Shown: one piece after another, positions 1 through 8,597 of the stretch
Layout of the letters: each line of letters opens with the position of its first letter
How positions within the stretch are numbered: the first letter of the stretch is position 1
DNA from: Eubacteriales bacterium
Lineage (GTDB): Bacteria; Bacillota; Clostridia; Oscillospirales; CAG-272
DNA length: 56,321 bases
Direction of reading: 5' to 3'
NCBI GenBank assembly: GCA_045652135.1
Contig: JAZRTS010000163.1
Span: 1 to 56,321, forward strand
Notes under the pieces: model-generated
The model's input: only the letters and a program-made list of their open reading frames with translations
Databases searched by the model: none
What the model was told of the DNA's origin: nothing
Position numbers and translations under genes: made by a program

Positions 1-33
1 ATTTCGCTGGTCCGAATCCAGCCATCCCAGCCA
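1..33 (+). tRNA. 3' end of a tRNA truncated by the window edge (T-arm, acceptor 3' strand, encoded CCA); Gln-like
   Basis: T-arm gctgg/tccgaat/ccagc at 6-22, acceptor strand catccca, discriminator G, CCA at 31-33, followed directly by a terminator. The implied U1:A72 pair plus G73 resembles Firmicute tRNA-Gln. The T-loop reads TCCGAAT rather than TTCGAAT, and the anticodon lies outside the window. Confidence 0.5.
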
Positions 34-68: not shown

Positions 69-221
69 ATGATGTTTGCCTTCGGCAAATGATGACGGCT
101 ACGCCTAATGATGTGTGCCCAACGGCACATAGAGGCAAACATCGCATCATTGCGGAACGGAGTGGAGCAACATCATATTTGCGAAGCAAATGCATCATAT
201 CGCCGCAAGGCGATGCATCAT
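69..221. repeat. Hexamer-punctuated hairpin array A (ATGATG x3, then CATCAT x4)
   Basis: ATGATG at 69, 89 and 108; CATCAT at 145, 171, 193 and 216. The spacers fold as short hairpins at 75-89 (TTCG loop), 114-129, 177-191 (GCGAAGC mini-hairpin) and 199-214 (GCAA loop). Confidence 0.75.
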
Positions 222-276: not shown

Positions 277-630
277 ATGAAAGAAAATAAACTCGTCAAG
301 CTTTCAATGGACTTTTCCGTTGATATTATAAATCTCGTTAAATATTTGAAAAGTATCCACGAAACAATCATCGCAAACCAGATCGGCAGAAGCGGCACCT
401 CGATTGGCGCCAATATTCATGAAGCGCAATACGCGCAAGGCACAAAGGATTTTATATCTAAATTCGAAATTGCTCTTAAAGAAGCAAGTGAAACGGGATA
501 TTGGCTTGAGTTGCTTTATAGAACGAAATATATTGATGAGCAAGCTTTTAAAACACTCTCCTCAAAATGCACTTCGTTACGAGTGATGCTGATTGCCTCT
601 TGTAAAACGGTGAAGGAGAACACGAAATGA
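277..630 (+). CDS. Four-helix-bundle protein (23S rRNA intervening-sequence protein family, TIGR02436-like)
   Basis: The ORF track gives 265..630 with a GTG start, but the ATG at 277 lies 11 nt after GGAGG (261-265). It is ~117 aa and helical, with the family-typical SIGANIxEA segment. Confidence 0.8.
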   Translation: MKENKLVKLSMDFSVDIINLVKYLKSIHETIIANQIGRSGTSIGANIHEAQYAQGTKDFISKFEIALKEASETGYWLELLYRTKYIDEQAFKTLSSKCTSLRVMLIASCKTVKENTK

Positions 631-1115
631 AACGCCTATTATCTTTTCTTTGTGTTATGCTTCTTTGTCTCACTGTTTCCGCGTGCGGGTTTACAGAAAA
701 CAAATTAAGTAAGCACTTTGCGTTTGAAACATCTGATTTTATTGTTGTAGAAGAAAATGACACGCACAGTGGTTTTCACGGAGATGGCTCATACTATCTC
801 ATTTTAGATTGCTCGCAAAATACTGATAAAGCAAGAAATATTGTTAAAAGTTGGAAGAGCTTGCCTCTTTCTGAAAACCTGCATCTTGTTATGTATGGCG
901 GCGAAAAAGACGGCATAAATTACGGATACAATTTTGCCGAAGAAGCAAAATGGCCAACAATAGAAAATGGTGTATTCAAATTTGTTGATCGCCACACTGA
1001 ATCCAAAAACATCAGTGATGATTCTCAACTGCTCGACAGATACTCTTTTAATTTTTCTATTGCTGTTTACGATTTGGACTCTGATACCCTGTATTATTTT
1101 GAGATGGATACTTGA
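627..1115 (+). CDS. Hypothetical lipoprotein
   Basis: N-terminal signal peptide with lipobox LTVSA-C. Its start overlaps the upstream stop as ATGA. No recognisable domain. Confidence 0.7.
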   Translation: MKRLLSFLCVMLLCLTVSACGFTENKLSKHFAFETSDFIVVEENDTHSGFHGDGSYYLILDCSQNTDKARNIVKSWKSLPLSENLHLVMYGGEKDGINYGYNFAEEAKWPTIENGVFKFVDRHTESKNISDDSQLLDRYSFNFSIAVYDLDSDTLYYFEMDT

Positions 1116-1182
1116 TAAGTTGACCTTTTGTTCGTAATCACCTCGGCTTTTGACCTTTTATCCGCAACAAGGCAGAAAAAAG

Positions 1183-1207
1183 CATCGATTTTGTCGGTGA
1201 TTTTTTT
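1183..1207 (+). terminator. Intrinsic terminator after the lipoprotein gene
   Basis: Stem catcga/tcggtg (one G-U pair) followed by a T7 run. Confidence 0.55.
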
Positions 1208-1210
1208 CAA

Positions 1211-1386
1211 CGAAATAATAAATCCCTAACGGGATTTGTGAAATATGCTGCCTCATATGAAATAGCTAACGCTATGAAATACGTAGCTTGCGTATGAGGG
1301 ATTTATTTAATTTCACTTTCTGCGCAAGCAGAAAATTTCATAATCCGTGAGAATTATTTCATATTTTCCGCGAGGAAAATATTTCA
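1211..1386. repeat. Heptamer-punctuated hairpin array B ((A)TGAAAT x4, then ATTTCA(T) x4)
   Basis: Forward motifs at 1212 (degenerate), 1239, 1258 and 1275; reverse-complement motifs at 1310, 1335, 1356 and 1381. Spacer hairpins at 1220-1237 (7 bp, TAAC loop), 1263-1274 (TAAC), 1279-1295, 1317-1334 (7 bp, GCAA) and 1363-1380 (7 bp, GCGA). Confidence 0.8.
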
Positions 1387-1477
1387 TTAAAATCTATCAC
1401 TCCGTCAACAGCAAAATATCACTAAAAGTTTGTTATTTAAAGAATCGAAGTTATAAAAACGCAAGGGAAAACACGGA

Positions 1478-1798
1478 ATGAACAATACAAAATGGACGGA
1501 AATCTTCAAAGAATTTTATTACGATATTGAATGTTCAAAGGATGATGAATTAAGCCGCACACCGATTCAATGGACAACCAAATCAACAAACGGTTATATA
1601 TACTCCGACACTACATGGACACATTTCGGGGTTGGTATGGAAAATTCAAAAGAAATTGAATGGTTAAAAATCGATCTGACTCCTGCAAATAAGGATATTG
1701 TTCTTGCTGTTTTGAGAAAAATTCATGTCCCGGGTGAAGTGTTTGACGATTGTGTATACGTATATGGCTATCGCACGGATGTTGACTATATAAAATAG
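1478..1798 (+). CDS. Hypothetical protein (106 aa)
   Basis: Clean ORF with a weak AAGGGA Shine-Dalgarno upstream. No recognisable motif. Confidence 0.55.
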   Translation: MNNTKWTEIFKEFYYDIECSKDDELSRTPIQWTTKSTNGYIYSDTTWTHFGVGMENSKEIEWLKIDLTPANKDIVLAVLRKIHVPGEVFDDCVYVYGYRTDVDYIK

Positions 1799-1841
1799 TA
1801 TAATTGCACCGTGACAAACAAAACGATTAAGGAGAATAATA

Positions 1842-2465
1842 ATGAGTGTACCGATTCCGCACTATTTAAATGATATAGCTATTCTTGAAAAGCAAAAGGA
1901 CACTTGGGTTCATTTTACCGTCAAATGCTCTTGTGAAAGTGACCGTTTTCTCGTTTACGAAAACCACCTTAACAAAGAAGAAAAAGCGCTTGAAAGGCCT
2001 TATTACGATAAACTGACGGAAATTTATTGCAGTAATTCCCGGAGGATAACAATAAAAGACGAAAACGGAAAAATACATTATTGGAAAGCGCTTGAAGATT
2101 CAAAAGAAGAAATCGTAATCCCCGAAAAGCCGTATTTTTCGGGAATCACGGTCATCAAGGCAAAATGCGCCGATTGCGGAAAAGAGCATTTGATTTTTGA
2201 CAGCAGGATTCACGGCTACGACGGGATAACAGGCGAAGAAACAAAAGAAGCTATGGAATATGAGCCGCACTTCAGGTTAAAGTGCAAAGGCATTGTTTCT
2301 TTGTCATTGAAAATCGAGAACAGCGAATCTTTTGAAGAATTCAGTGAGGACTACGATCTCGGATTTACCGAAGAACAATATTCAAACGCATTCAGCTGGA
2401 TTATGATTTACAGAACAGACGAAAAAGGAAAGAAAACAAAGATCTTCGATTATGAAACAGCGTAA
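1842..2465 (+). CDS. Hypothetical protein with CxC...CxxC cysteine pairs (207 aa)
   Basis: AAGGAG sits 8 nt upstream of the ATG. Cysteine pairs are KCSCE and KCADCG. No recognisable family. Confidence 0.65.
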   Translation: MSVPIPHYLNDIAILEKQKDTWVHFTVKCSCESDRFLVYENHLNKEEKALERPYYDKLTEIYCSNSRRITIKDENGKIHYWKALEDSKEEIVIPEKPYFSGITVIKAKCADCGKEHLIFDSRIHGYDGITGEETKEAMEYEPHFRLKCKGIVSLSLKIENSESFEEFSEDYDLGFTEEQYSNAFSWIMIYRTDEKGKKTKIFDYETA

Positions 2466-2495
2466 AGCTTTGTATTGGTCGTTGATGGTATAAAT

Positions 2496-2525
2496 AAAAG
2501 GAACACCTTGCAAAGTGTTCCTTTT
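2496..2525. terminator. Bidirectional terminator between convergent genes
   Basis: 11-bp stem aaaaggaacac/gtgttcctttt with an 8-nt loop. The A and T runs are built into the stem ends. Confidence 0.8.
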
Positions 2526-2530
2526 GTTAT

Positions 2531-4066
2531 TTAAAGAATTTCCGATGCCGTGCGTTCAACCTCAAGCATCTTTTTATATTCTTCCATATATTTATTGAAT
2601 CCGTCTATGTCGCTTTGATCTGCCTTCACGGTTACGCTTTCGGCATTCTTAAACACACGGTCATTCAAATAATCTTCAAGTGATTCGCCGTCATTTTTGT
2701 CTGACGCATAAGCTGCAAGAAGCGCCATACCGTAAGGGCCGCCCTCACCAGCTGTTTTCATACAGGTGATAGGTGCGCCCGAGCACACGCACGACATATA
2801 CGTTTGACCGACCTTGGGTGTTTTGAACAGTCCGCCATGGCCCGTCATAGAATCGATTTTCACATTTTCCTTTTCAAGAATATCCATTCCGAGCTTCAAG
2901 GTCGCCATTGTGGAATAAAGAATCGACCTGAAAAAGTTTGCAAGCGTAAATTTACTGTCAGGACGGCGCACAACTAACGGACGTCCGTTTTCAATATGCG
3001 TTATGACCTCACCTGCAAGATAATTGCAAACAAGCACACCGCCGCAGTCAGCATCCCCCGTCAGTGACTTTTCGTAAAGCTTCGTGTATATATCGCCGTC
3101 TGACACATCAGCGCCGAGAAGCATCGCCGATTCTTTAAGAACGGACACCCACGCATTTGAGTCAGTTGTGCAGTTGTTACCGTGAACCATCGCAACATTC
3201 TTTCCGCTTGGTGTTGTTATAATGTCTATTTCCTCATACACGTTTTCAAGAGGTTTCTCCATAACGACCATCGCAAAAATGGACGTACCTGCAGAAACAT
3301 TTCCAGTTCTCGGTGCTACTGCATTCGTTGCAATCATTCCCGTTCCGCCATCCCCCTCGGGAGGTGCAAACGGAATACCCTCAGGCAAAAGTCCGTCTAT
3401 CATTTCAGAACCTTTTTTCGTAAGCGTACCTGCATTTTCACCTGCAACAAGAATCTTCGGTAAAACATCCGTAAGCTTCCACGGAATCTTTTTTTCCTCT
3501 GCAAGCTTGTTGAACTTTTCGACCATTTTTTCATCATAGCAAAGCTTTTCCGTATCCACGGGGAACATACCCGATGCTTCGCCTATACCGACAGCATTGA
3601 CACCCGTCAGCATATAATGAACATATCCTGCAAGGCTTGTTATATGCGCAACTTTAGAAACGTGTTCTTCCCCATTTAAGACCGCCTGATACAGATGAGC
3701 TATAGACCATCTTTGCGGAATATTGAAATTAAAAAGCTCTGTAAGCTCATAAGCCGCAGGTGCTGTTATCGTGTTTTGCCATGTTCTGAAAGGTACTAAA
3801 AGATTCCAATCTTCATCAAAGACGAGATATCCGTGCATCATACCCGAAAGTCCCATATAACAAACGTCTTCCCTGCCCTGTATCTGTGACAGCGCAGTTT
3901 TAAGTCCGTCCCAGACCTTTGAAACATCATAAGTCCAGATGCCGTTTTCGTATGAGCTTGCCCACGTATAATCTCCGCTTGACACGGGTTTATATTCAGA
4001 ATCGAGAGCAACGGCCTTTATTCGTGTTGAGCCGAATTCAATTCCGAGAAATTTTTTATTATTCAT
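2531..4066 (-). CDS. FGGY-family carbohydrate kinase (xylulokinase-like)
   Basis: N-terminal GIEFGSTRIKAV actin-fold ATPase motif, ~510 aa, with FGGY-like architecture throughout. The ATG at 4066 lies behind AAGGCGG; the GTG at 4075 in the track is less likely. Confidence 0.75.
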   Translation of the reverse strand: MNNKKFLGIEFGSTRIKAVALDSEYKPVSSGDYTWASSYENGIWTYDVSKVWDGLKTALSQIQGREDVCYMGLSGMMHGYLVFDEDWNLLVPFRTWQNTITAPAAYELTELFNFNIPQRWSIAHLYQAVLNGEEHVSKVAHITSLAGYVHYMLTGVNAVGIGEASGMFPVDTEKLCYDEKMVEKFNKLAEEKKIPWKLTDVLPKILVAGENAGTLTKKGSEMIDGLLPEGIPFAPPEGDGGTGMIATNAVAPRTGNVSAGTSIFAMVVMEKPLENVYEEIDIITTPSGKNVAMVHGNNCTTDSNAWVSVLKESAMLLGADVSDGDIYTKLYEKSLTGDADCGGVLVCNYLAGEVITHIENGRPLVVRRPDSKFTLANFFRSILYSTMATLKLGMDILEKENVKIDSMTGHGGLFKTPKVGQTYMSCVCSGAPITCMKTAGEGGPYGMALLAAYASDKNDGESLEDYLNDRVFKNAESVTVKADQSDIDGFNKYMEEYKKMLEVERTASEIL

Positions 4067-4116
4067 ATACTTCACCGCCTTGGTTTTATTCTACCATACA
4101 ACTTTGAAAATGTCAA

Positions 4117-4146
4117 ATCCCCGACAGATTTTTGTCTGTCGGGGAT
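4117..4146. terminator. Intrinsic terminator
   Basis: 12-bp perfect stem atccccgacaga/tctgtcggggat with T-rich flanks. Confidence 0.75.
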
Positions 4147-4150
4147 ATTT

Positions 4151-4534
4151 TTATTCATCATCTTCCTCGTCTTCGTAATTTTCCTCGTTTTCATCATCAG
4201 GCTTAAACTCATTGTCGGGATTTGATATTTTATCATTTAAAAATTCTCGAACATTTTCCATCCAATTACCGTCCTCAGACATCATATCCTTGAACGTTTC
4301 AAAATCGGAATCATCGCTTTCCTCAAGAAATGTCTGACGGAGCCTCATCTGCTCCACAAACGAAAGAGCAACATCAAAAAGTAAAATTGCCAAGCCTATG
4401 TTAACGAATGACTTAACGAATATTCCCACTATCGAAAAAACAATACCCAAAACAAAAAGTACCCAAAATCTGAATACTATATTCATCACAAAACCAAAAA
4501 TAAATAAGCTTATCGGATATTTTCTGTTTTTCAC
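4151..4534 (-). CDS. Small membrane protein with an acidic C-terminal tail
   Basis: GTG start 7 nt after AAGGAG. Two or three hydrophobic helices are followed by a D/E-rich tail. Confidence 0.6.
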   Translation of the reverse strand: MKNRKYPISLFIFGFVMNIVFRFWVLFVLGIVFSIVGIFVKSFVNIGLAILLFDVALSFVEQMRLRQTFLEESDDSDFETFKDMMSEDGNWMENVREFLNDKISNPDNEFKPDDENEENYEDEEDDE

Positions 4535-4576
4535 CCTCGAACTCCTTTAATCTTTATATCCACCTTATTATAACAT

Positions 4577-4611
4577 AAAATCAGCAGGAAAACAATATCC
4601 CTGCTGATTTT
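4577..4611. terminator. Intrinsic terminator downstream of putP
   Basis: 12-bp stem aaaatcagcagg/cctgctgatttt. Confidence 0.75.
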
Positions 4612-4621
4612 TATATTTTAA

Positions 4622-6184
4622 TTATTCACATTTACCTGCACGTACAGCCTCGAAATCTTCTTCGATTTCTTTTGAAGGTGCTTTTGTCAGAAGTGAAACA
4701 ACAACGATGCAAACACACGAGAATATGAACGCAGGAAGAAGCTCATAAATTGCGAACACGCCGCCTATCTTGCTGAGCACGAGCTTCCAGAAGAATACCA
4801 TAAACGCACCGCTTATCATACCTGCGACAGCACCGGGCTTATTGACACGCTTCCAGAAAAGTGAGAATATCATAATCGGTCCGAATGTTGCACCGAATCC
4901 CGCCCAAGCAAAGGATACTATTTCAAATATAACGCTGTTTTCATCAAGTGCTATAACAATACCGATAGCGGTAAGAACAAGAAGCGTGATACGTGAAACG
5001 TTCATAACCTGCTTGTCGCTTGCGTTTTTCTTGAATACTCCCTGGAAAACGTTCTTTGAAAAAGCAGATGCGGCAATAAGCAGATATGAGTCTGACGAGC
5101 TGATAGTCGCCGCAAGAATTCCTGCCATTACAAAGCCTGCGAGAATGGGGGGAAGGAATGACTCTGACATAAGAATGAATATGCTTTCCGCTGATGACTT
5201 TGTCAAAAGTGCATCGGGGAAAAGCTGACGTCCGACAATACCTATAAATACCGCAACGGCAAGGGATATAACTACCCAAACCATAGCAATTCTGCGTGAA
5301 CGCTTAAGTTCTTCTTCCTTACGTATAGCCATAAAGCGCAAAAGTACCTGAGGCATACCGAAGTAACCGAGGCCCCATGCCATCATTGAGAAGACGCTGA
5401 GCAAGCCGTAATTTGCAGCCTCACCGAATACGGGCTTACCGCCTTCAAGGAGCTGTGTTCCCGCTTCGTTAACAGTAGGTGTTGCAAGTCCGAAAAATTC
5501 GAAAAATCCGGGGATAGCCTTTGCATTGTCAACGACAGCGCCGACACCGCCTGCCTGTACCACGCCGATTATAACGATAACAGCGAGCGCCACTATCATA
5601 ACAATAGCCTGCATAAAGTCAGAAGCACTTTCAGCCAAAAATCCGCCGAGTATCGTATACACAAGCACGAACACCGCACCTACGATAAGCATTGCCTGAT
5701 AAGGAACACCGAACAATGTTGAAAAAAGCTTTCCGCATGTTACAAAGCAGCTTGCCGCATATACCGTAAAGAATATAAGTATAAACAAAGCCGAAAGAAG
5801 CATTATATGCTTGTTCTTTTCTCTGAAACGGTTTGAAAAGAAATCGGGAAGTGTAATCGAGTTATTAGCCCTTACACTGTAGCGCCTTAAACGCTTTGAA
5901 ACGATAAGCCAGTTAAGGTATGTACCTACCGCAAGACCTATAGCCGTCCAAGCGGCATCCGCAAGACCGCACCAATAAGCAACACCGGGGAGTCCCATAA
6001 GAAGCCATCCACTCATATCCGATGCCTCAGCACTCATCGCCGTTACCCAAGGACCGAGTGAACGACCGCCGAGAAAATATTCTTCAGAGCTTTTATTGGC
6101 ACGCTTCGCATAGAAGACACCGATCATAATGACTGCTGCCATATATATGACCATTGCAATCAAAATCTGAATTGTATCATTCAT
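4622..6184 (-). CDS. putP: Sodium:proline symporter (SSF family)
   Basis: 520 aa and polytopic. N-terminal YFLGGRSLGPWVTAMSAEASDMSGWLLMGLPG is typical of PutP. GGAGG RBS. Confidence 0.85.
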   Translation of the reverse strand: MNDTIQILIAMVIYMAAVIMIGVFYAKRANKSSEEYFLGGRSLGPWVTAMSAEASDMSGWLLMGLPGVAYWCGLADAAWTAIGLAVGTYLNWLIVSKRLRRYSVRANNSITLPDFFSNRFREKNKHIMLLSALFILIFFTVYAASCFVTCGKLFSTLFGVPYQAMLIVGAVFVLVYTILGGFLAESASDFMQAIVMIVALAVIVIIGVVQAGGVGAVVDNAKAIPGFFEFFGLATPTVNEAGTQLLEGGKPVFGEAANYGLLSVFSMMAWGLGYFGMPQVLLRFMAIRKEEELKRSRRIAMVWVVISLAVAVFIGIVGRQLFPDALLTKSSAESIFILMSESFLPPILAGFVMAGILAATISSSDSYLLIAASAFSKNVFQGVFKKNASDKQVMNVSRITLLVLTAIGIVIALDENSVIFEIVSFAWAGFGATFGPIMIFSLFWKRVNKPGAVAGMISGAFMVFFWKLVLSKIGGVFAIYELLPAFIFSCVCIVVVSLLTKAPSKEIEEDFEAVRAGKCE

Positions 6185-6216
6185 ATTTTTTCCTCCATAT
6201 TGAATAAATATAATGC

Positions 6217-6246
6217 ATTATATCATAAATATACAATAAATGTCAA
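6217..6246 (-). promoter_or_regulatory. Sigma-A promoter for putP
   Basis: On the minus strand: TTGACA (6246-6241), 18-nt spacer, TATAAT (6222-6217). Confidence 0.7.
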
Positions 6247-6290
6247 TATCTTTTAATATAATCATAATTTAAGATTGCCCTGTATATTAA

Positions 6291-6465
6291 TGAAATCGTG
6301 CGGAATTGCTTCGCACAATGAAATCCTCACTTTGTTCGGATGAAATCTTCAGCCTACGGCTTCAGATGAAATTAAATCCACCCATCCGCCGTCGAGGCAG
6401 ATTTCATTCCCGCAGGGAATTTCATCGTCGAATACGATTTCACCCACCCGCAAGGGTGGATTTAG
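6291..6465. repeat. Heptamer-punctuated hairpin array C ((A)TGAAAT x4, then ATTTCA(T) x4)
   Basis: Forward motifs at 6291, 6319, 6341 and 6367; reverse motifs at 6401, 6419, 6437 and 6460 (the last degenerate, ATTTAG). Spacer hairpins at 6298-6316, 6407-6419 (GCA loop), 6424-6438 and 6444-6459 (GCAA). TAAATCCACCC (6373-6383) is perfectly complementary to 6454-6464. Confidence 0.8.
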
Positions 6466-6470
6466 TTGCA

Positions 6471-6500
6471 AAAAGAGCAAGTCATATGACTTGCTCTTTT
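6471..6500. terminator. Bidirectional terminator after tRNA-Ser
   Basis: Perfect 30-nt palindrome aaaagagcaagtcat/atgacttgctctttt. Confidence 0.8.
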
Positions 6501-6503
6501 CTC

Positions 6504-6594
6504 TGGCGGAGAAGCAGAGATTCGAACTCTGGAACCCTTTTACCGGTTACACGATTTCCAGTCGTGCGCCCTCGACCAACTAGGCGACTTCTCC
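6504..6594 (-). tRNA. tRNA-Ser (anticodon GGA)
   Basis: The reverse complement reads ggagaagtcgcctagttggtcgagggcgcacgactGGAaatcgtgtaaccggtaaaagggttccagagttcgaatctctgcttctccgcca. It is 91 nt with a long variable arm, a GTTCGAATC T-loop and an encoded CCA. Confidence 0.9.
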
Positions 6595-6615
6595 ATATCG
6601 GTTGAATACTTGTGT

Positions 6616-6644
6616 ATTATATCACAACAAATCAAAAAAATCAA
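6616..6644 (-). promoter_or_regulatory. Sigma-A promoter for tRNA-Ser
   Basis: On the minus strand: TTGATT (6644-6639), 17-nt spacer, TATAAT (6621-6616), about 20 nt upstream of the tRNA 5' end. Confidence 0.65.
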
Positions 6645-6694
6645 GAGTTTTTTCAAAAAAATATTATTTTTTTGATATTCAACCTTTTTCGGCC

Positions 6695-7132
6695 TTATAT
6701 TACGATATTAACATCGAAATTTTGACCGCAACGAGGACATTTTACCGTGTGTTTTCCCTTTTTTCTCGGCAAGCGCAAGAAGCTTTTGCAGTGCGGACAT
6801 TTGCGATAGCGATGTGTTTTTATATACTTTACACGGTTGAAACTTCTTTTGAAAAACTCGCCGATGGGCCTTGAAAGCTTAAGATATACTGCATTTTCCT
6901 TTTGGCGCGCGTAAATATTTTTTGAAAAAAATCGAAAAATTATAATCGCCAGCAGCATAAAGCTAAAAATCAGTAGCGCCAATGAAATTATCTGTGATGC
7001 TTTTGATGAGGAAAAAGCAAGAAATGCTCTTATTATAAAAATTACAAAGTACGCACAGAACATAAAAAACGAAAACTTATCGTATCCGTATCTGCCGTAC
7101 ATAAATCTTATCAGCTTATCACGAAATCTCAT
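6695..7132 (-). CDS. Membrane protein with a C-terminal zinc ribbon (CPHC...CPRC)
   Basis: The ATG at 7132 lies behind AAGGAG; the longer track start at 7195 would overlap the upstream gene. Two TM helices are followed by CPHCKS...CPRCGQ. Confidence 0.65.
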   Translation of the reverse strand: MRFRDKLIRFMYGRYGYDKFSFFMFCAYFVIFIIRAFLAFSSSKASQIISLALLIFSFMLLAIIIFRFFSKNIYARQKENAVYLKLSRPIGEFFKRSFNRVKYIKTHRYRKCPHCKSFLRLPRKKGKHTVKCPRCGQNFDVNIVI

Positions 7133-7181
7133 TTTATTCTCCTTAAAATCAGTAAAGACAACCTTTCGGTTGTCTTTACCA

Positions 7182-8597
7182 TTATAACGAAACATCTTGA
7201 ACGAATATTTCTCTTATTGTATCTTTTTTAACTTCATTCTGAGTATTCGCCGTTTTTCCTCTTTTTTCAAAGAAATCCGTTGCAACCTTCGGGAAAAGCG
7301 CATAGGAAAGCACATCCTCCTCACACTTGGCAATTCCCTTCGCTTCTTCTTTGTACTTTTCAAGCTCGGGCGCAATAAGATCGGCAGGACGGCAGGTTAT
7401 GACTTCTTCATCGCCTATTGCCTTTTTGCGCACTTCTTCATTGACTTCCCCCGGAAGTCTTCCGTATTCACCCTTCAAAAGCCCTTTTGACTCCTTGGTG
7501 AACACCTTGTATCTTTCACCGGAAAGCACGTTGAGAACTGACTGTGAGCCTACGATCTGGCTTGTGGGTGTTACAAGAGGAGGATAACCGAAGTCCTTTC
7601 TTACACGGGGAATTTCCGCAAGCACCTCGTAATATTTATCCTCGGCATTCGCCTGCTTTAGCTGTGATATGAGGTTTGAAAGCATACCGCCGGGAACTTG
7701 GTACAAAAGCGTATTTGTATCAACGTTGAGCACCTTGGGATCAAGCGAACCGCTTTCTTTGAGTTTCTTTGCAATGCCTCTGAAATGCGTTGCGGCATCG
7801 CTTAAAAGCGCAAGGTCAAGACCTGTATCGCGTTCTGTTGATGCCATTGTGGCAACAAGTGATTCGGTTGCCGGCTGTGATGTGCCGTTCGCAAGCGGTG
7901 AAAGTGCCGTATCAACTATATCAACACCTGCCATTGCCGCCATAAGATACGTCATATCGCCCGTACCCGACGTGTTGTGTGTATGCAAGTGGATCGGCAC
8001 GGATATTTTTTCTTTAAGTGCCTTTACAAGCGAGTATGCATCATAAGGCAAAAGCAGGTTTGCCATATCTTTGATACAGATAATGTCAGCGCCCTTTTCT
8101 TCAAGTCGGCACGCAAGATCAACAAAATATTCGTGGCTGTGAACGGGGCTTGTCGTGTAGCTTATTGCCGCTTCGACCGTACCGCCGTACTGCTTTGTAA
8201 ACTTCATCGCCGCTTCGATATTTCTTATATCGTTCAGCGCATCAAAAATTCTGATTATATCGATACCGTTTTCAACGGATTTCTTTACAAAAGCTTCTAC
8301 AGTGTCATCGGCATAGTGCTTGTAGCCGAGAAGATTCTGCCCTCTTAAAAGCATCTGGAGCTTCGTATTCGGCAAAGCCTTGCGAAGCGTGCGAAGTCTT
8401 TCCCACGGATCTTCATTCAAAAAACGCATACATGAATCGAATGTTGCGCCGCCCCAGCATTCAAGCGAATAAAAGCCTATTTTGTCAAGCACCTCGCAAG
8501 CAGGGAGCATATCCTCAATTCTCATTCTCGTTGCGGCTTGCGATTGATGTGCATCACGCAGTATAGTATCTGTTATTTTTAACGGATTTTTAGCCAT
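7182..8597 (-). CDS. oadA: Oxaloacetate decarboxylase alpha-type carboxyltransferase subunit, with no biotinyl domain
   Basis: N-terminal ITDTILRDAHQS HMGL-like TIM-barrel motif and HxH metal site (HLHTHNTSG). 471 aa, ending before any biotin-attachment domain. Confidence 0.8.
   Translation of the reverse strand: MAKNPLKITDTILRDAHQSQAATRMRIEDMLPACEVLDKIGFYSLECWGGATFDSCMRFLNEDPWERLRTLRKALPNTKLQMLLRGQNLLGYKHYADDTVEAFVKKSVENGIDIIRIFDALNDIRNIEAAMKFTKQYGGTVEAAISYTTSPVHSHEYFVDLACRLEEKGADIICIKDMANLLLPYDAYSLVKALKEKISVPIHLHTHNTSGTGDMTYLMAAMAGVDIVDTALSPLANGTSQPATESLVATMASTERDTGLDLALLSDAATHFRGIAKKLKESGSLDPKVLNVDTNTLLYQVPGGMLSNLISQLKQANAEDKYYEVLAEIPRVRKDFGYPPLVTPTSQIVGSQSVLNVLSGERYKVFTKESKGLLKGEYGRLPGEVNEEVRKKAIGDEEVITCRPADLIAPELEKYKEEAKGIAKCEEDVLSYALFPKVATDFFEKRGKTANTQNEVKKDTIREIFVQDVSL

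Follow-up and report, generated by a model that had tools for sequence, protein, structure and literature searches.

The stretch of DNA analysed here—all 56,321 nucleotides (nt) of contig JAZRTS010000163.1 from an Eubacteriales bacterium (assembly GCA_045652135.1), 'the window' in what follows—carries near its left edge, at positions 69–221, an array of short hairpins that is punctuated by the hexamer ATGATG in its first half and by the reverse complement, CATCAT, in its second. This array, array A, is a slightly short copy of a dyad-symmetric, multi-hairpin repeat conserved among gut Clostridia. It belongs to a superfamily of such repeats whose GTGAAAT class is the Gut-1 motif of Rfam, and it is a sister of that motif. 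It is followed by the gene for a small four-helix-bundle (4HB) protein, and where such genes and arrays adjoin, protein sequence and punctuation vary together.

ATGATG begins at positions 69, 89 and 108, and CATCAT at 145, 171, 193 and 216, as an earlier, sequence-only reading of the window had them, and the segments in between are mini-hairpins. Four are perfect, with stems of 6 bp: tttgcc/TTC/ggcaaa (75–89), tgtgcc/CAAC/ggcaca (114–129), atttgc/GAA/gcaaat (177–191, containing GCGAAGC) and atcgcc/GCAA/ggcgat (199–214). All four had been recognized at the outset, the first with a TTCG loop; its loop is a TTC triloop, instead. Two further hairpins are weaker, GGC/TAC/GCC at 97–105 and a TTGC..GCAA pairing with purine-purine mismatches at 150–170. 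The forward half-array (69–133, + strand) is one unit short of the canonical four; the reverse half-array occupies 145–221 of the same strand. Around their junction lies the conserved centre, GGCAAACATCGCATCATTGCG (134–154, + strand), which holds the first CATCAT, is complementary to the left end of the array, ATGATGTTTGCC, and pairs with 69–80 in the minimum-free-energy fold. A half-array comprises four perfect punctuation motifs and a degenerate fifth; in array A the fifths are ATAGAG (129–134) and CATCGC (140–145), and their counterpart in solitary Gut-1 arrays is GTGAAG-like. The array as a whole is set, as had been proposed, between a terminator and a promoter. The former is a bidirectional intrinsic terminator at 34–67 (A-tract, 15-bp stem with arms at 34–48 and 53–67, T-tract). 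The latter is a consensus sigma-70-type promoter at 222–250 on the + strand (TTGACA at 222–227, a 17-nt spacer, TATAAT at 245–250; a 12/12 match), the −35 hexamer of which abuts the last CATCAT. None of the array hairpins has a T-run after it, and only the hairpin at 34–67 qualifies as an intrinsic terminator.

Arrays of this kind are far from what chance would yield, and the initial impression of an ordered, non-random structure was correct. When the window is searched for stretches with at least three forward and at least three reverse copies of one 6-mer, three are found—array A at 69–221, array B at ∼1211–1424 and array C at ∼6288–6468—whereas 100 dinucleotide-preserving shuffles of the 56-kb window yield none. 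Folding of region 30–260, terminator included, is far more stable than that of shuffled sequence (z = −7.0 for the + strand, −5.8 for the − strand).

Copies of array A are widespread. A 37-mer of it occurs exactly in five other species-level metagenome-assembled genomes, and the central 21-mer, GGCAAACATYGCATCATTGCG (Y at position 10), occurs exactly in at least 119 genome loci from many species; all of the loci listed come from Oscillospirales-type Clostridia of animal and human guts. A hidden Markov model (HMM) of the family, made from 75 copies that include the one in the window, matches this copy over 69–221 (nhmmer, 133 bits, E = 1.8e-40), with the 21-mer at 134–154. The canonical '4+4' form, found in 74 of 100 copies, comprises four ATGATG-plus-hairpin units, the centre and four CATCAT-plus-hairpin units, ∼170 bp in all. 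When 1.07 Mb of unselected DNA from ∼80 related species was scanned with the model, only two further copies were found, corresponding to ∼2 A-type copies per Mb, and so the element appears to be present at few copies per genome, not hundreds. Synteny with the window neighbours is kept in none of the 80 loci fetched by way of the neighbouring symporter gene, and exact-protein look-ups for three window proteins returned no match. In viral and plasmid collections the 21-mer occurs at three IMG/VR loci, and in isolate phage and plasmid collections not at all; an origin in phages or plasmids was rejected on these grounds.

At each unit position the sequence of the stem is kept, as a few freely recombining alleles, across more than 100 genomes, and whole units are gained or lost between copies, with deletion variants visible in metagenomes. 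The sequence-only reading had held that conservation resides in the punctuation rather than in the stems. Within a single array, and between classes of array, this is so; across copies of the A family it is not, because position-specific stems are retained, and at family level array A behaves as a conserved repeat, much as repetitive extragenic palindromic (REP) sequences and REP doublets forming hairpins (REPIN) do.

That the ability to fold is itself conserved, as had also been suggested, is well supported. In the alignment of 75 sequences, 87.9% of cells of the local hairpins are paired, versus ∼40% when the partners are slid, and changes on both sides occur in 23 of the 37 hairpin pairs; 0 of 500 shuffles reach the observed values. 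The hairpins also have a polarity. Read on the + strand, the loops of the left half are TNC in 166 cases and GNA in 3, and those of the right half are GNA (88) or GNRA (23), with only 6 TNC. Single mismatches follow suit: C.T outnumbers G.A by 24 to 2 in the left half, whereas G.A (16) and G.G (8) outnumber C.T (3) in the right. G.T and A.C mismatches are balanced. The left-unit allele TCGTTTCACT is, moreover, the reverse complement of the right-unit allele AGTGAAACGA. Since polarity flips at the centre and this pair of alleles mirrors the flip, the element is a true dyad, and the switch in orientation first noticed in the window is found throughout the family. Hairpins of DNA as well as of RNA are stabilized by C-GNA-G triloops and sheared-type purine pairs, and in both halves of the element it is the strand that reads CATCAT that bears them.

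A nested rod with hairpins stacked along its sides, formed by pairing of the forward motifs with the reverse ones, had been put forward as the shape that these sequences adopt. It does not appear to be their essential form. The numbers of units on the left and on the right are uncorrelated (r = 0.00), solitary half-arrays exist (L213, L230, L246, L270, L278), and the halves occur in both orders, forward-then-reverse and reverse-then-forward, all of which argue against a rod. Any one transcript, furthermore, would combine one 'good' and one 'poor' half, which counts against the idea that the element works as a single RNA rod.

The surroundings of array A recur along with it. The T-run of a bidirectional terminator abuts the array in 67 of the 75 aligned copies, and a −35 hexamer, TTGA(CA) or TGAA(A), follows directly in 50. 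Just upstream of 63 of 106 A-family copies, a co-oriented tRNA or transfer-messenger RNA (tmRNA) gene ends, the tRNAs representing 13 isotypes. The window begins in such a gene: positions 1–33 (+ strand) are the 3′ end of a tRNA, cut by the edge of the window, whose T-arm, acceptor and CCA are very similar to those of the tRNA ends that precede copies of array A in loci L004 and L016. The anticodon read in L004 suggests that this is probably a tRNA-Gln, and ARAGORN finds tRNA-Gln upstream of nine A-family copies. In unselected loci, some array follows ∼5 of 27 ends of tRNA operons; arrays are thus common at tRNA ends without being universal there. In ∼50 of the 75 copies TTGA occurs on both sides of the array, on the left as part of the terminator and on the right as the −35 box. 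The two do not covary when either differs, and so a target-site duplication, and with it a miniature inverted-repeat transposable element (MITE), was rejected.

Arrays B and C identify the kind of element to which array A belongs. Array B (1211–1424), which follows a terminator at 1176–1206, and array C (6288–6468) are both punctuated by (A/G)TGAAAT and then ATTTCA(C/T). Array C lies, on the − strand, between the terminator of a tRNA-Ser gene and the promoter of the symporter gene (in order: tRNA-Ser, terminator, array, TTGACA-N18-TGxTATAAT promoter, symporter), and array B is placed likewise. Against the Gut-1 covariance model (RF01706), array C scores 65.4 bits on the − strand over 6396–6468, above the gathering score of 50 bits; array B is matched in both of its halves, on opposite strands, at 38.4 bits (+) and 36.6 bits (−), below the threshold; and region 69–221 does not match even at E ≤ 10. 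Rfam misses array A because its punctuation differs. The Gut-1 consensus itself comprises three variable hairpins with GUGAAAU between them, which is the very design—punctuation conserved, stems variable—that the sequence-only reading had described and had been unable to assign to any named element. That last claim does not hold: the siblings match Gut-1, and array A is a punctuation variant of the same kind. With Gut-1 it shares short, unrelated hairpins joined by a constant 6–7-nt linker, an RTGA core in that linker, occurrence in the same gut Clostridia and at the same positions (as arrays B and C attest), and at least three short, variable hairpins supported by covariation. It differs in the linker, ATGATG/CATCAT rather than GUGAAAU, and in that Rfam models one half only, of three hairpins, as a small RNA (sRNA).

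At least eight punctuation classes can be distinguished: ATGATG, GTGATG, GTGAAAT, ATGAAG, GTGAAG, TGATAT, GATGATAT and CGATAT. ATGGAAT and AGTTAT are further variants, and the RTGA core is common to most. How halves combine was surveyed with a hairpin filter that proved over-strict and that split many dyads into apparent singletons, and only the result for adjacent pairs, found without requiring complementarity, is used here: in 46 of 50 pairs of neighbouring half-arrays the two were called as belonging to the same class, and where halves stand face to face this holds in essentially every case. Of the remaining four, at least two share a class as well but were read at offset k-mers; another, in locus L214, is a true junction between different classes. 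At ∼3500–4480 of that locus runs a tandem repeat of a ∼270-bp unit, in which a terminator precedes first a CATCAT half-array and then a GTGAAAT one, each with a hairpin after it; half-arrays of different classes can thus join back to back. In another locus, the IMG/VR contig L124, positions 1–1160 hold one Gut-1-class and three A-class arrays within 1.1 kb, one of them truncated and fused directly to the Gut-1 array; in one case there, the terminator lies to the right of the array rather than to the left.

The most informative feature of the window, and one that the sequence-only reading missed, is the link between the array and the gene behind it. This gene (277–630, + strand; ribosome-binding site GGAGG at 261–265) specifies a 4HB protein of 117 amino acids that matches PF05635 (1.4e-27; 96.5 bits, cut-off 33.8), TIGR02436 (2e-30; 105.2 bits, cut-off 24) and Protein Data Bank entry 2RLD (5e-29), a structure with five chains. 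Outside of diversity-generating retroelements (DGRs), PF05635/TIGR02436 proteins form a large and uncharacterized group known mainly from intervening sequences in 23S ribosomal RNA (rRNA). Genes of this kind lie downstream of 32 of 107 A-family arrays, and they are what the promoter behind the array most often drives. To avoid ascertainment bias, the association was also viewed from the side of the protein. In a sample blind to arrays—80 metagenome loci fetched by means of the 4HB protein alone, 59 of whose genes had enough upstream sequence—at least four class motifs were present in the 260 nt before the promoter of 54 of the 59 genes (92%), compared with 15 of 974 control windows, and at least six motifs were present for 47 of the 59 compared with 5 of the 974. 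Nearly all of the cases that a strict detector skipped are, by eye, arrays also.

The class of the array, moreover, goes with the sequence of the protein. In 51 of 52 cases the nearest protein neighbour belongs to the same punctuation class, and mean identity between 4HB proteins is 0.79 within classes and 0.61 between them, a difference reached in 0 of 2000 permutations. Classes that are one base apart, ATGATG and GTGATG or ATGAAG and GTGAAG, pair with sister clusters of proteins. In such pairs the same base has been switched in all eight units, on both strands, and since this would be hard to accomplish by drift or by conversion across unrelated spacers, we infer a change in the specificity of some reader of the motifs. 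Judged from these sequence comparisons, the array and the 4HB gene appear to constitute a single genetic unit.

The 4HB gene is the only gene that is consistently linked to the arrays, and its product is akin to a protein of known habits. PF05635 resembles Avd (PMC10053308), a pentameric basic barrel that binds, through multiple contacts, a specific stretch of non-coding RNA beside its own gene (PMC6182149). The two have in common a fold family (PF05635/cd16375), and the Avd precedent is of a pentameric, basic protein with its site next to its own gene and in contact at many points. They differ in that neither a reverse transcriptase nor a template-repeat/variable-repeat pair was seen over the first 8.6 kb—the open reading frames (ORFs) scanned there, from 277 to 8597, include no reverse-transcriptase domain, and nothing in that stretch marks the gene as part of a DGR—and in that the array lies upstream of the promoter, outside of the transcript, and is repetitive and dyad-symmetric. 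From the consistent linkage, the likeness to Avd, the five chains of 2RLD and the five motifs of a half-array, we propose, tentatively and as not quite an even call, that each half-array is a multivalent site for an oligomer of its cognate 4HB protein.

On this proposal, the punctuation motifs would be the recognition sites of the oligomer, and the hairpins would be compact spacers that keep the 6–7-nt motifs exposed and in register. Inversion of the halves would provide each strand with a complete half-array, so that the element might read alike from either direction, whichever strand is exposed. Array and gene would then comprise one module, autoregulatory or selfish, and 'orphan' arrays of the same class might be served in trans by the cognate protein. 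Such a complex might autoregulate the promoter that the array abuts, mark or protect the ends of tRNA genes, or propagate the module. Binding itself, the form of the target (single-stranded or duplex, DNA or RNA) and the effect that binding would have are all matters that we infer.

Several points weigh against the proposal. Some 70% of A arrays lack an adjacent 4HB gene, as do arrays B and C, and for most arrays, therefore, action in trans has to be assumed. Class and protein could co-vary without any recognition, if the two are simply inherited together as a linked unit. The sole residue that cleanly separates the 4HB proteins linked to ATGATG from those linked to GTGATG is position 4, Asn in the former and Ser in the latter. 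The match between five motifs and a pentamer depends on the degenerate fifth motif, and the preference for tRNA terminators is left unexplained by the model. Proteins of the Avd family are not, to our knowledge, known to read short sequence motifs.

An alternative is that the array is a selfish, non-autonomous repeat, comparable to REPINs and bacterial interspersed mosaic elements (BIMEs), to BOX elements or to MITEs, that fills silent gaps next to terminators, and that the 4HB gene is a neighbour or hitch-hiker. Much that has been described above would fit: the element exists in multiple copies whose sequence is conserved between species, its unit alleles are mosaic, its units come and go, deletion variants exist in metagenomes, varied tRNAs precede it and varied genes follow, and in L124 several arrays are stacked in one gap. 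Its dyad symmetry, too, is like that of REPINs, and the parallel with REPINs and their REP-associated tyrosine transposases (RAYTs) can be carried further, for both are multi-copy, conserved, extragenic palindromic repeats found as inverted pairs at gene ends, and in both, repeat classes pair with a cognate, repeat-flanked protein gene. The sequence-only reading had called the array the opposite of REP and BIME repeats; it is not a classical REP, since stems within an array are unrelated, but its family-level conservation is REP/REPIN-like. Here, however, the stem differs from unit to unit, the constant part is a 6-nt linker rather than a GTAG-type head, and the partner is a four-helix bundle, not a Y1/HUH transposase. 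No target-site duplication exists, and the flanks do not covary. In the mapped loci neither a transposase nor a RAYT-like gene was seen to adjoin the arrays, and the nine ORFs nearest the window arrays and ten cargo ORFs in other loci include no transposase. Copy density is low, at ∼2 A-type copies per Mb of unselected DNA, and the element is nearly absent from viral and plasmid collections. The 92% linkage of 4HB genes to arrays, and the co-variation of class with protein, would need an explanation of their own. A purely selfish repeat is, in our estimation, decidedly unlikely.

Rfam classes Gut-1 as a gene for an sRNA, and array A could, accordingly, be a structured non-coding RNA—transcribed hairpins or a transcribed rod, acting as an sRNA, a protein sponge or a processing signal. 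Gut-1 was described in 2010 by Weinberg et al. from human-gut sequences with no sequenced organism, and was proposed as RNA on the basis of covariation (PMC2864571). The hairpins of array A covary as well, and both strands fold strongly; RNAalifold recovers long-range pairs between ATGATG and CATCAT, with one event (L071/L075) that alters both partners; Avd, the relative of the 4HB protein, binds RNA; and array-like contigs occur in metatranscriptomes. The array has no promoter of its own, however, situated as it is between a strong terminator and a promoter, and some solitary arrays sit between two terminators. GNA loops and G.A mismatches change strand at the centre, G.U mismatches are not in excess over A.C, triloops predominate rather than the tetraloops typical of RNA, and unit counts on the left and right are uncorrelated. 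The evidence on RNA comes from assembled contigs that carry no strand information, and depth is confounded in these comparisons by the array being conserved across species when its flanks are not. With that proviso, the peak-bin depth of the array is ∼3–13 times that of the adjacent 4HB gene in four DNA metagenomes, but only ∼0.25–0.5 times in two complementary DNA (cDNA) metatranscriptomes from one study. Relative to DNA, then, the array is ∼10–50-fold under-represented versus the neighbouring messenger RNA in the two cDNA libraries. Two other 'RNA' runs, labelled with organism names, behave like DNA. An array that sits between terminator and promoter, shows no bias towards G.U, has mostly triloops and switches strand at its centre is unlikely to give an abundant, stable RNA; low-level read-through RNA over it is possible. 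As an account of the element, a dedicated non-coding RNA strikes us as quite improbable.

Arrays recur between small genes in a way that calls integrons to mind. A serial layout of tRNA, array of one class, one or two small genes, array of another class, and more genes is seen in the window and in six other loci (L001, L012, L039, L054, L078, L101), and the cargo is unrelated from case to case: a phosphoesterase, a helix-turn-helix protein, a histidine phosphatase, a hydrolase and unknowns. The arrays might be recombination sites like attC, folded single strands bounding small cassettes behind tRNA and tmRNA genes that a site-specific recombinase exchanges. The serial layout and diverse cargo suit this idea, as does the fact that one promoter and its gene can recur behind arrays that adjoin different tRNAs, and so do structure-defined features typical of single-stranded DNA hairpins. 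Sites of the attC type, too, put structure before sequence, carry complementary short motifs at both sides, lie between small variable cassettes and, like the arrays, are thought to act as folded single strands. But an attC site is one bulged hairpin with RYYYAAC/GTTRRRY cores and an intI gene for a neighbour, whereas an array has some eight mini-hairpins, lacks those cores and has other motifs. No integrase occurs near arrays in the mapped loci or among the ORFs neighbouring the window arrays. The cassettes have promoters and terminators of their own, and a housekeeping gene also lies behind an array (array C). Recombination sites of this sort thus seem very doubtful candidates.

No better placed is a conventional site in duplex DNA, be it an array for an ordinary DNA-binding protein, in the manner of operators and centromeres, or a site for gyrase or insulation downstream of a highly transcribed tRNA gene. 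The motifs, ∼19–20 bp apart, would then share one side of the helix, and that the spacers are palindromic would have no significance. Dyad symmetry and abutment to the −35 box would suit such a site, as would a place in the gap that separates a strongly transcribed tRNA gene from the promoter after it, and the layout is like that of parC/ParR-type arrays upstream of their own operons. In parC–ParR and in the omega heptads of pSM19035, short direct or inverted repeats likewise lie just before the promoter of the gene for the reader protein, and specificity classes likewise co-vary with that protein. Those sites are contiguous or evenly spaced in duplex DNA, with no self-complementary spacers; they are plasmid-borne; and their proteins are of the ribbon-helix-helix type. 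A duplex site would leave unexplained the covariation that keeps the spacers self-complementary, the strand-specific G.A and GNA features would be meaningless in it, and several punctuation classes occur in one genome, too many for a single host protein such as gyrase to read. We consider this reading highly improbable.

Other candidates can be set aside quickly. The number of punctuation classes per genome disposes of Chi-like sites, uptake sequences, methylation motifs and any single host protein, gyrase included; stop codons in all frames were rejected, as the TGA positions cover two frames only; and the array is not, as was recognized from the start, a CRISPR (clustered regularly interspaced short palindromic repeats), for its repeats are of 6 nt and switch orientation at the centre, whereas those of CRISPRs are direct repeats of 23–47 nt in one orientation, set apart by unique spacers of about the same length.

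A number of other features accompany the arrays. The stop codon of the 4HB gene overlaps the start of the next ORF (ATGA, 627–630); this ORF (627–1115) has a lipoprotein-like N-terminus and matches no family, and it probably forms an operon with the 4HB gene. Past its stop codon, at 1117–1175, is a conserved element of 60–90 nt with two (G/A)CACC(T/G)TTT-like boxes (here TTGACCTTTT, twice) that ends in ..GCA right before the terminator. It is present also in L012, L026, L039, L078, L083, L087, L096 and L111, and is absent from Rfam. Elements of another kind, ∼100–130 nt in length, lie between the tRNA terminator and the next terminator in ten loci (L097, L008, L122, L082, L029, L073, L042, L172, L145 and L169). 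These have a conserved hairpin, ACAGUCCGG(U/G)GGACUGU, and end, where this is visible (L172, for example), in a copy of the 3′ end of the upstream tRNA, with T-arm, acceptor and CCA. They could be pseudo-tRNAs, att-like duplications or an unannotated small RNA; nine of the ten loci were scanned against Rfam (all but L172), with no match to these elements. The bidirectional array-side terminators of many loci (e.g. L004, L005, L016) conserve an apical sequence, TTTGTCTACCGACAAA, while the lower stem covaries, and the same type of terminator occurs after different tRNAs, immediately past the CCA; the window terminator (34–67) is of another type. The sodium:solute symporter gene behind array C (4622–6184, − strand) has relatives 79–87% identical in 80 species (L127–L206), and in several of these loci a tRNA of varying isotype lies upstream of it.

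Array A itself, then, is a fresh punctuation variant of a motif class that was known but uncharacterized. The dyad, the terminator and promoter context and the 4HB partner are absent from the 2010 Gut-1 paper and its supplements (PMC2864571), and the literature searched contained no functional study of Gut-1, or of PF05635 outside of retroelements; against that literature, the dyad, the multiplicity of classes, the terminator/tRNA/promoter context and the co-varying 4HB partner are all new. A bolder construction can be placed on the whole, although we think it more likely wrong than right. Arrays and 4HB proteins might constitute an undescribed two-part system, in which a pentameric, Avd-like protein reads five single-stranded motifs held between mini-hairpins and the classes of each co-evolve. 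It would have its place at the 3′ ends of tRNA and tmRNA genes and, where relatives of the protein are concerned, of rRNA genes too. Such a system would be kin to the Avd-spacer RNA pair but free of any retroelement, and it could serve as a mobile or boundary module of a new kind, by which small gene cassettes are shuffled in the DNA behind tRNA genes.

Gut-1, since 2010 an orphan with no host, context or function assigned to it, can now be placed in named lineages of gut Clostridia. It proves to be half of a dyad element and to represent a single punctuation class among at least eight, and it has gained a partner that can be tested. For the PF05635/TIGR02436 proteins, a class-specific cis element right before their genes offers a first handle on what they bind. 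If binding proves true, the arrays would represent a compact, programmable form of multivalent recognition, of short motifs displayed on folded single strands, and they may explain how small accessory cassettes have built up behind the tRNA genes of these abundant, uncultured gut bacteria.

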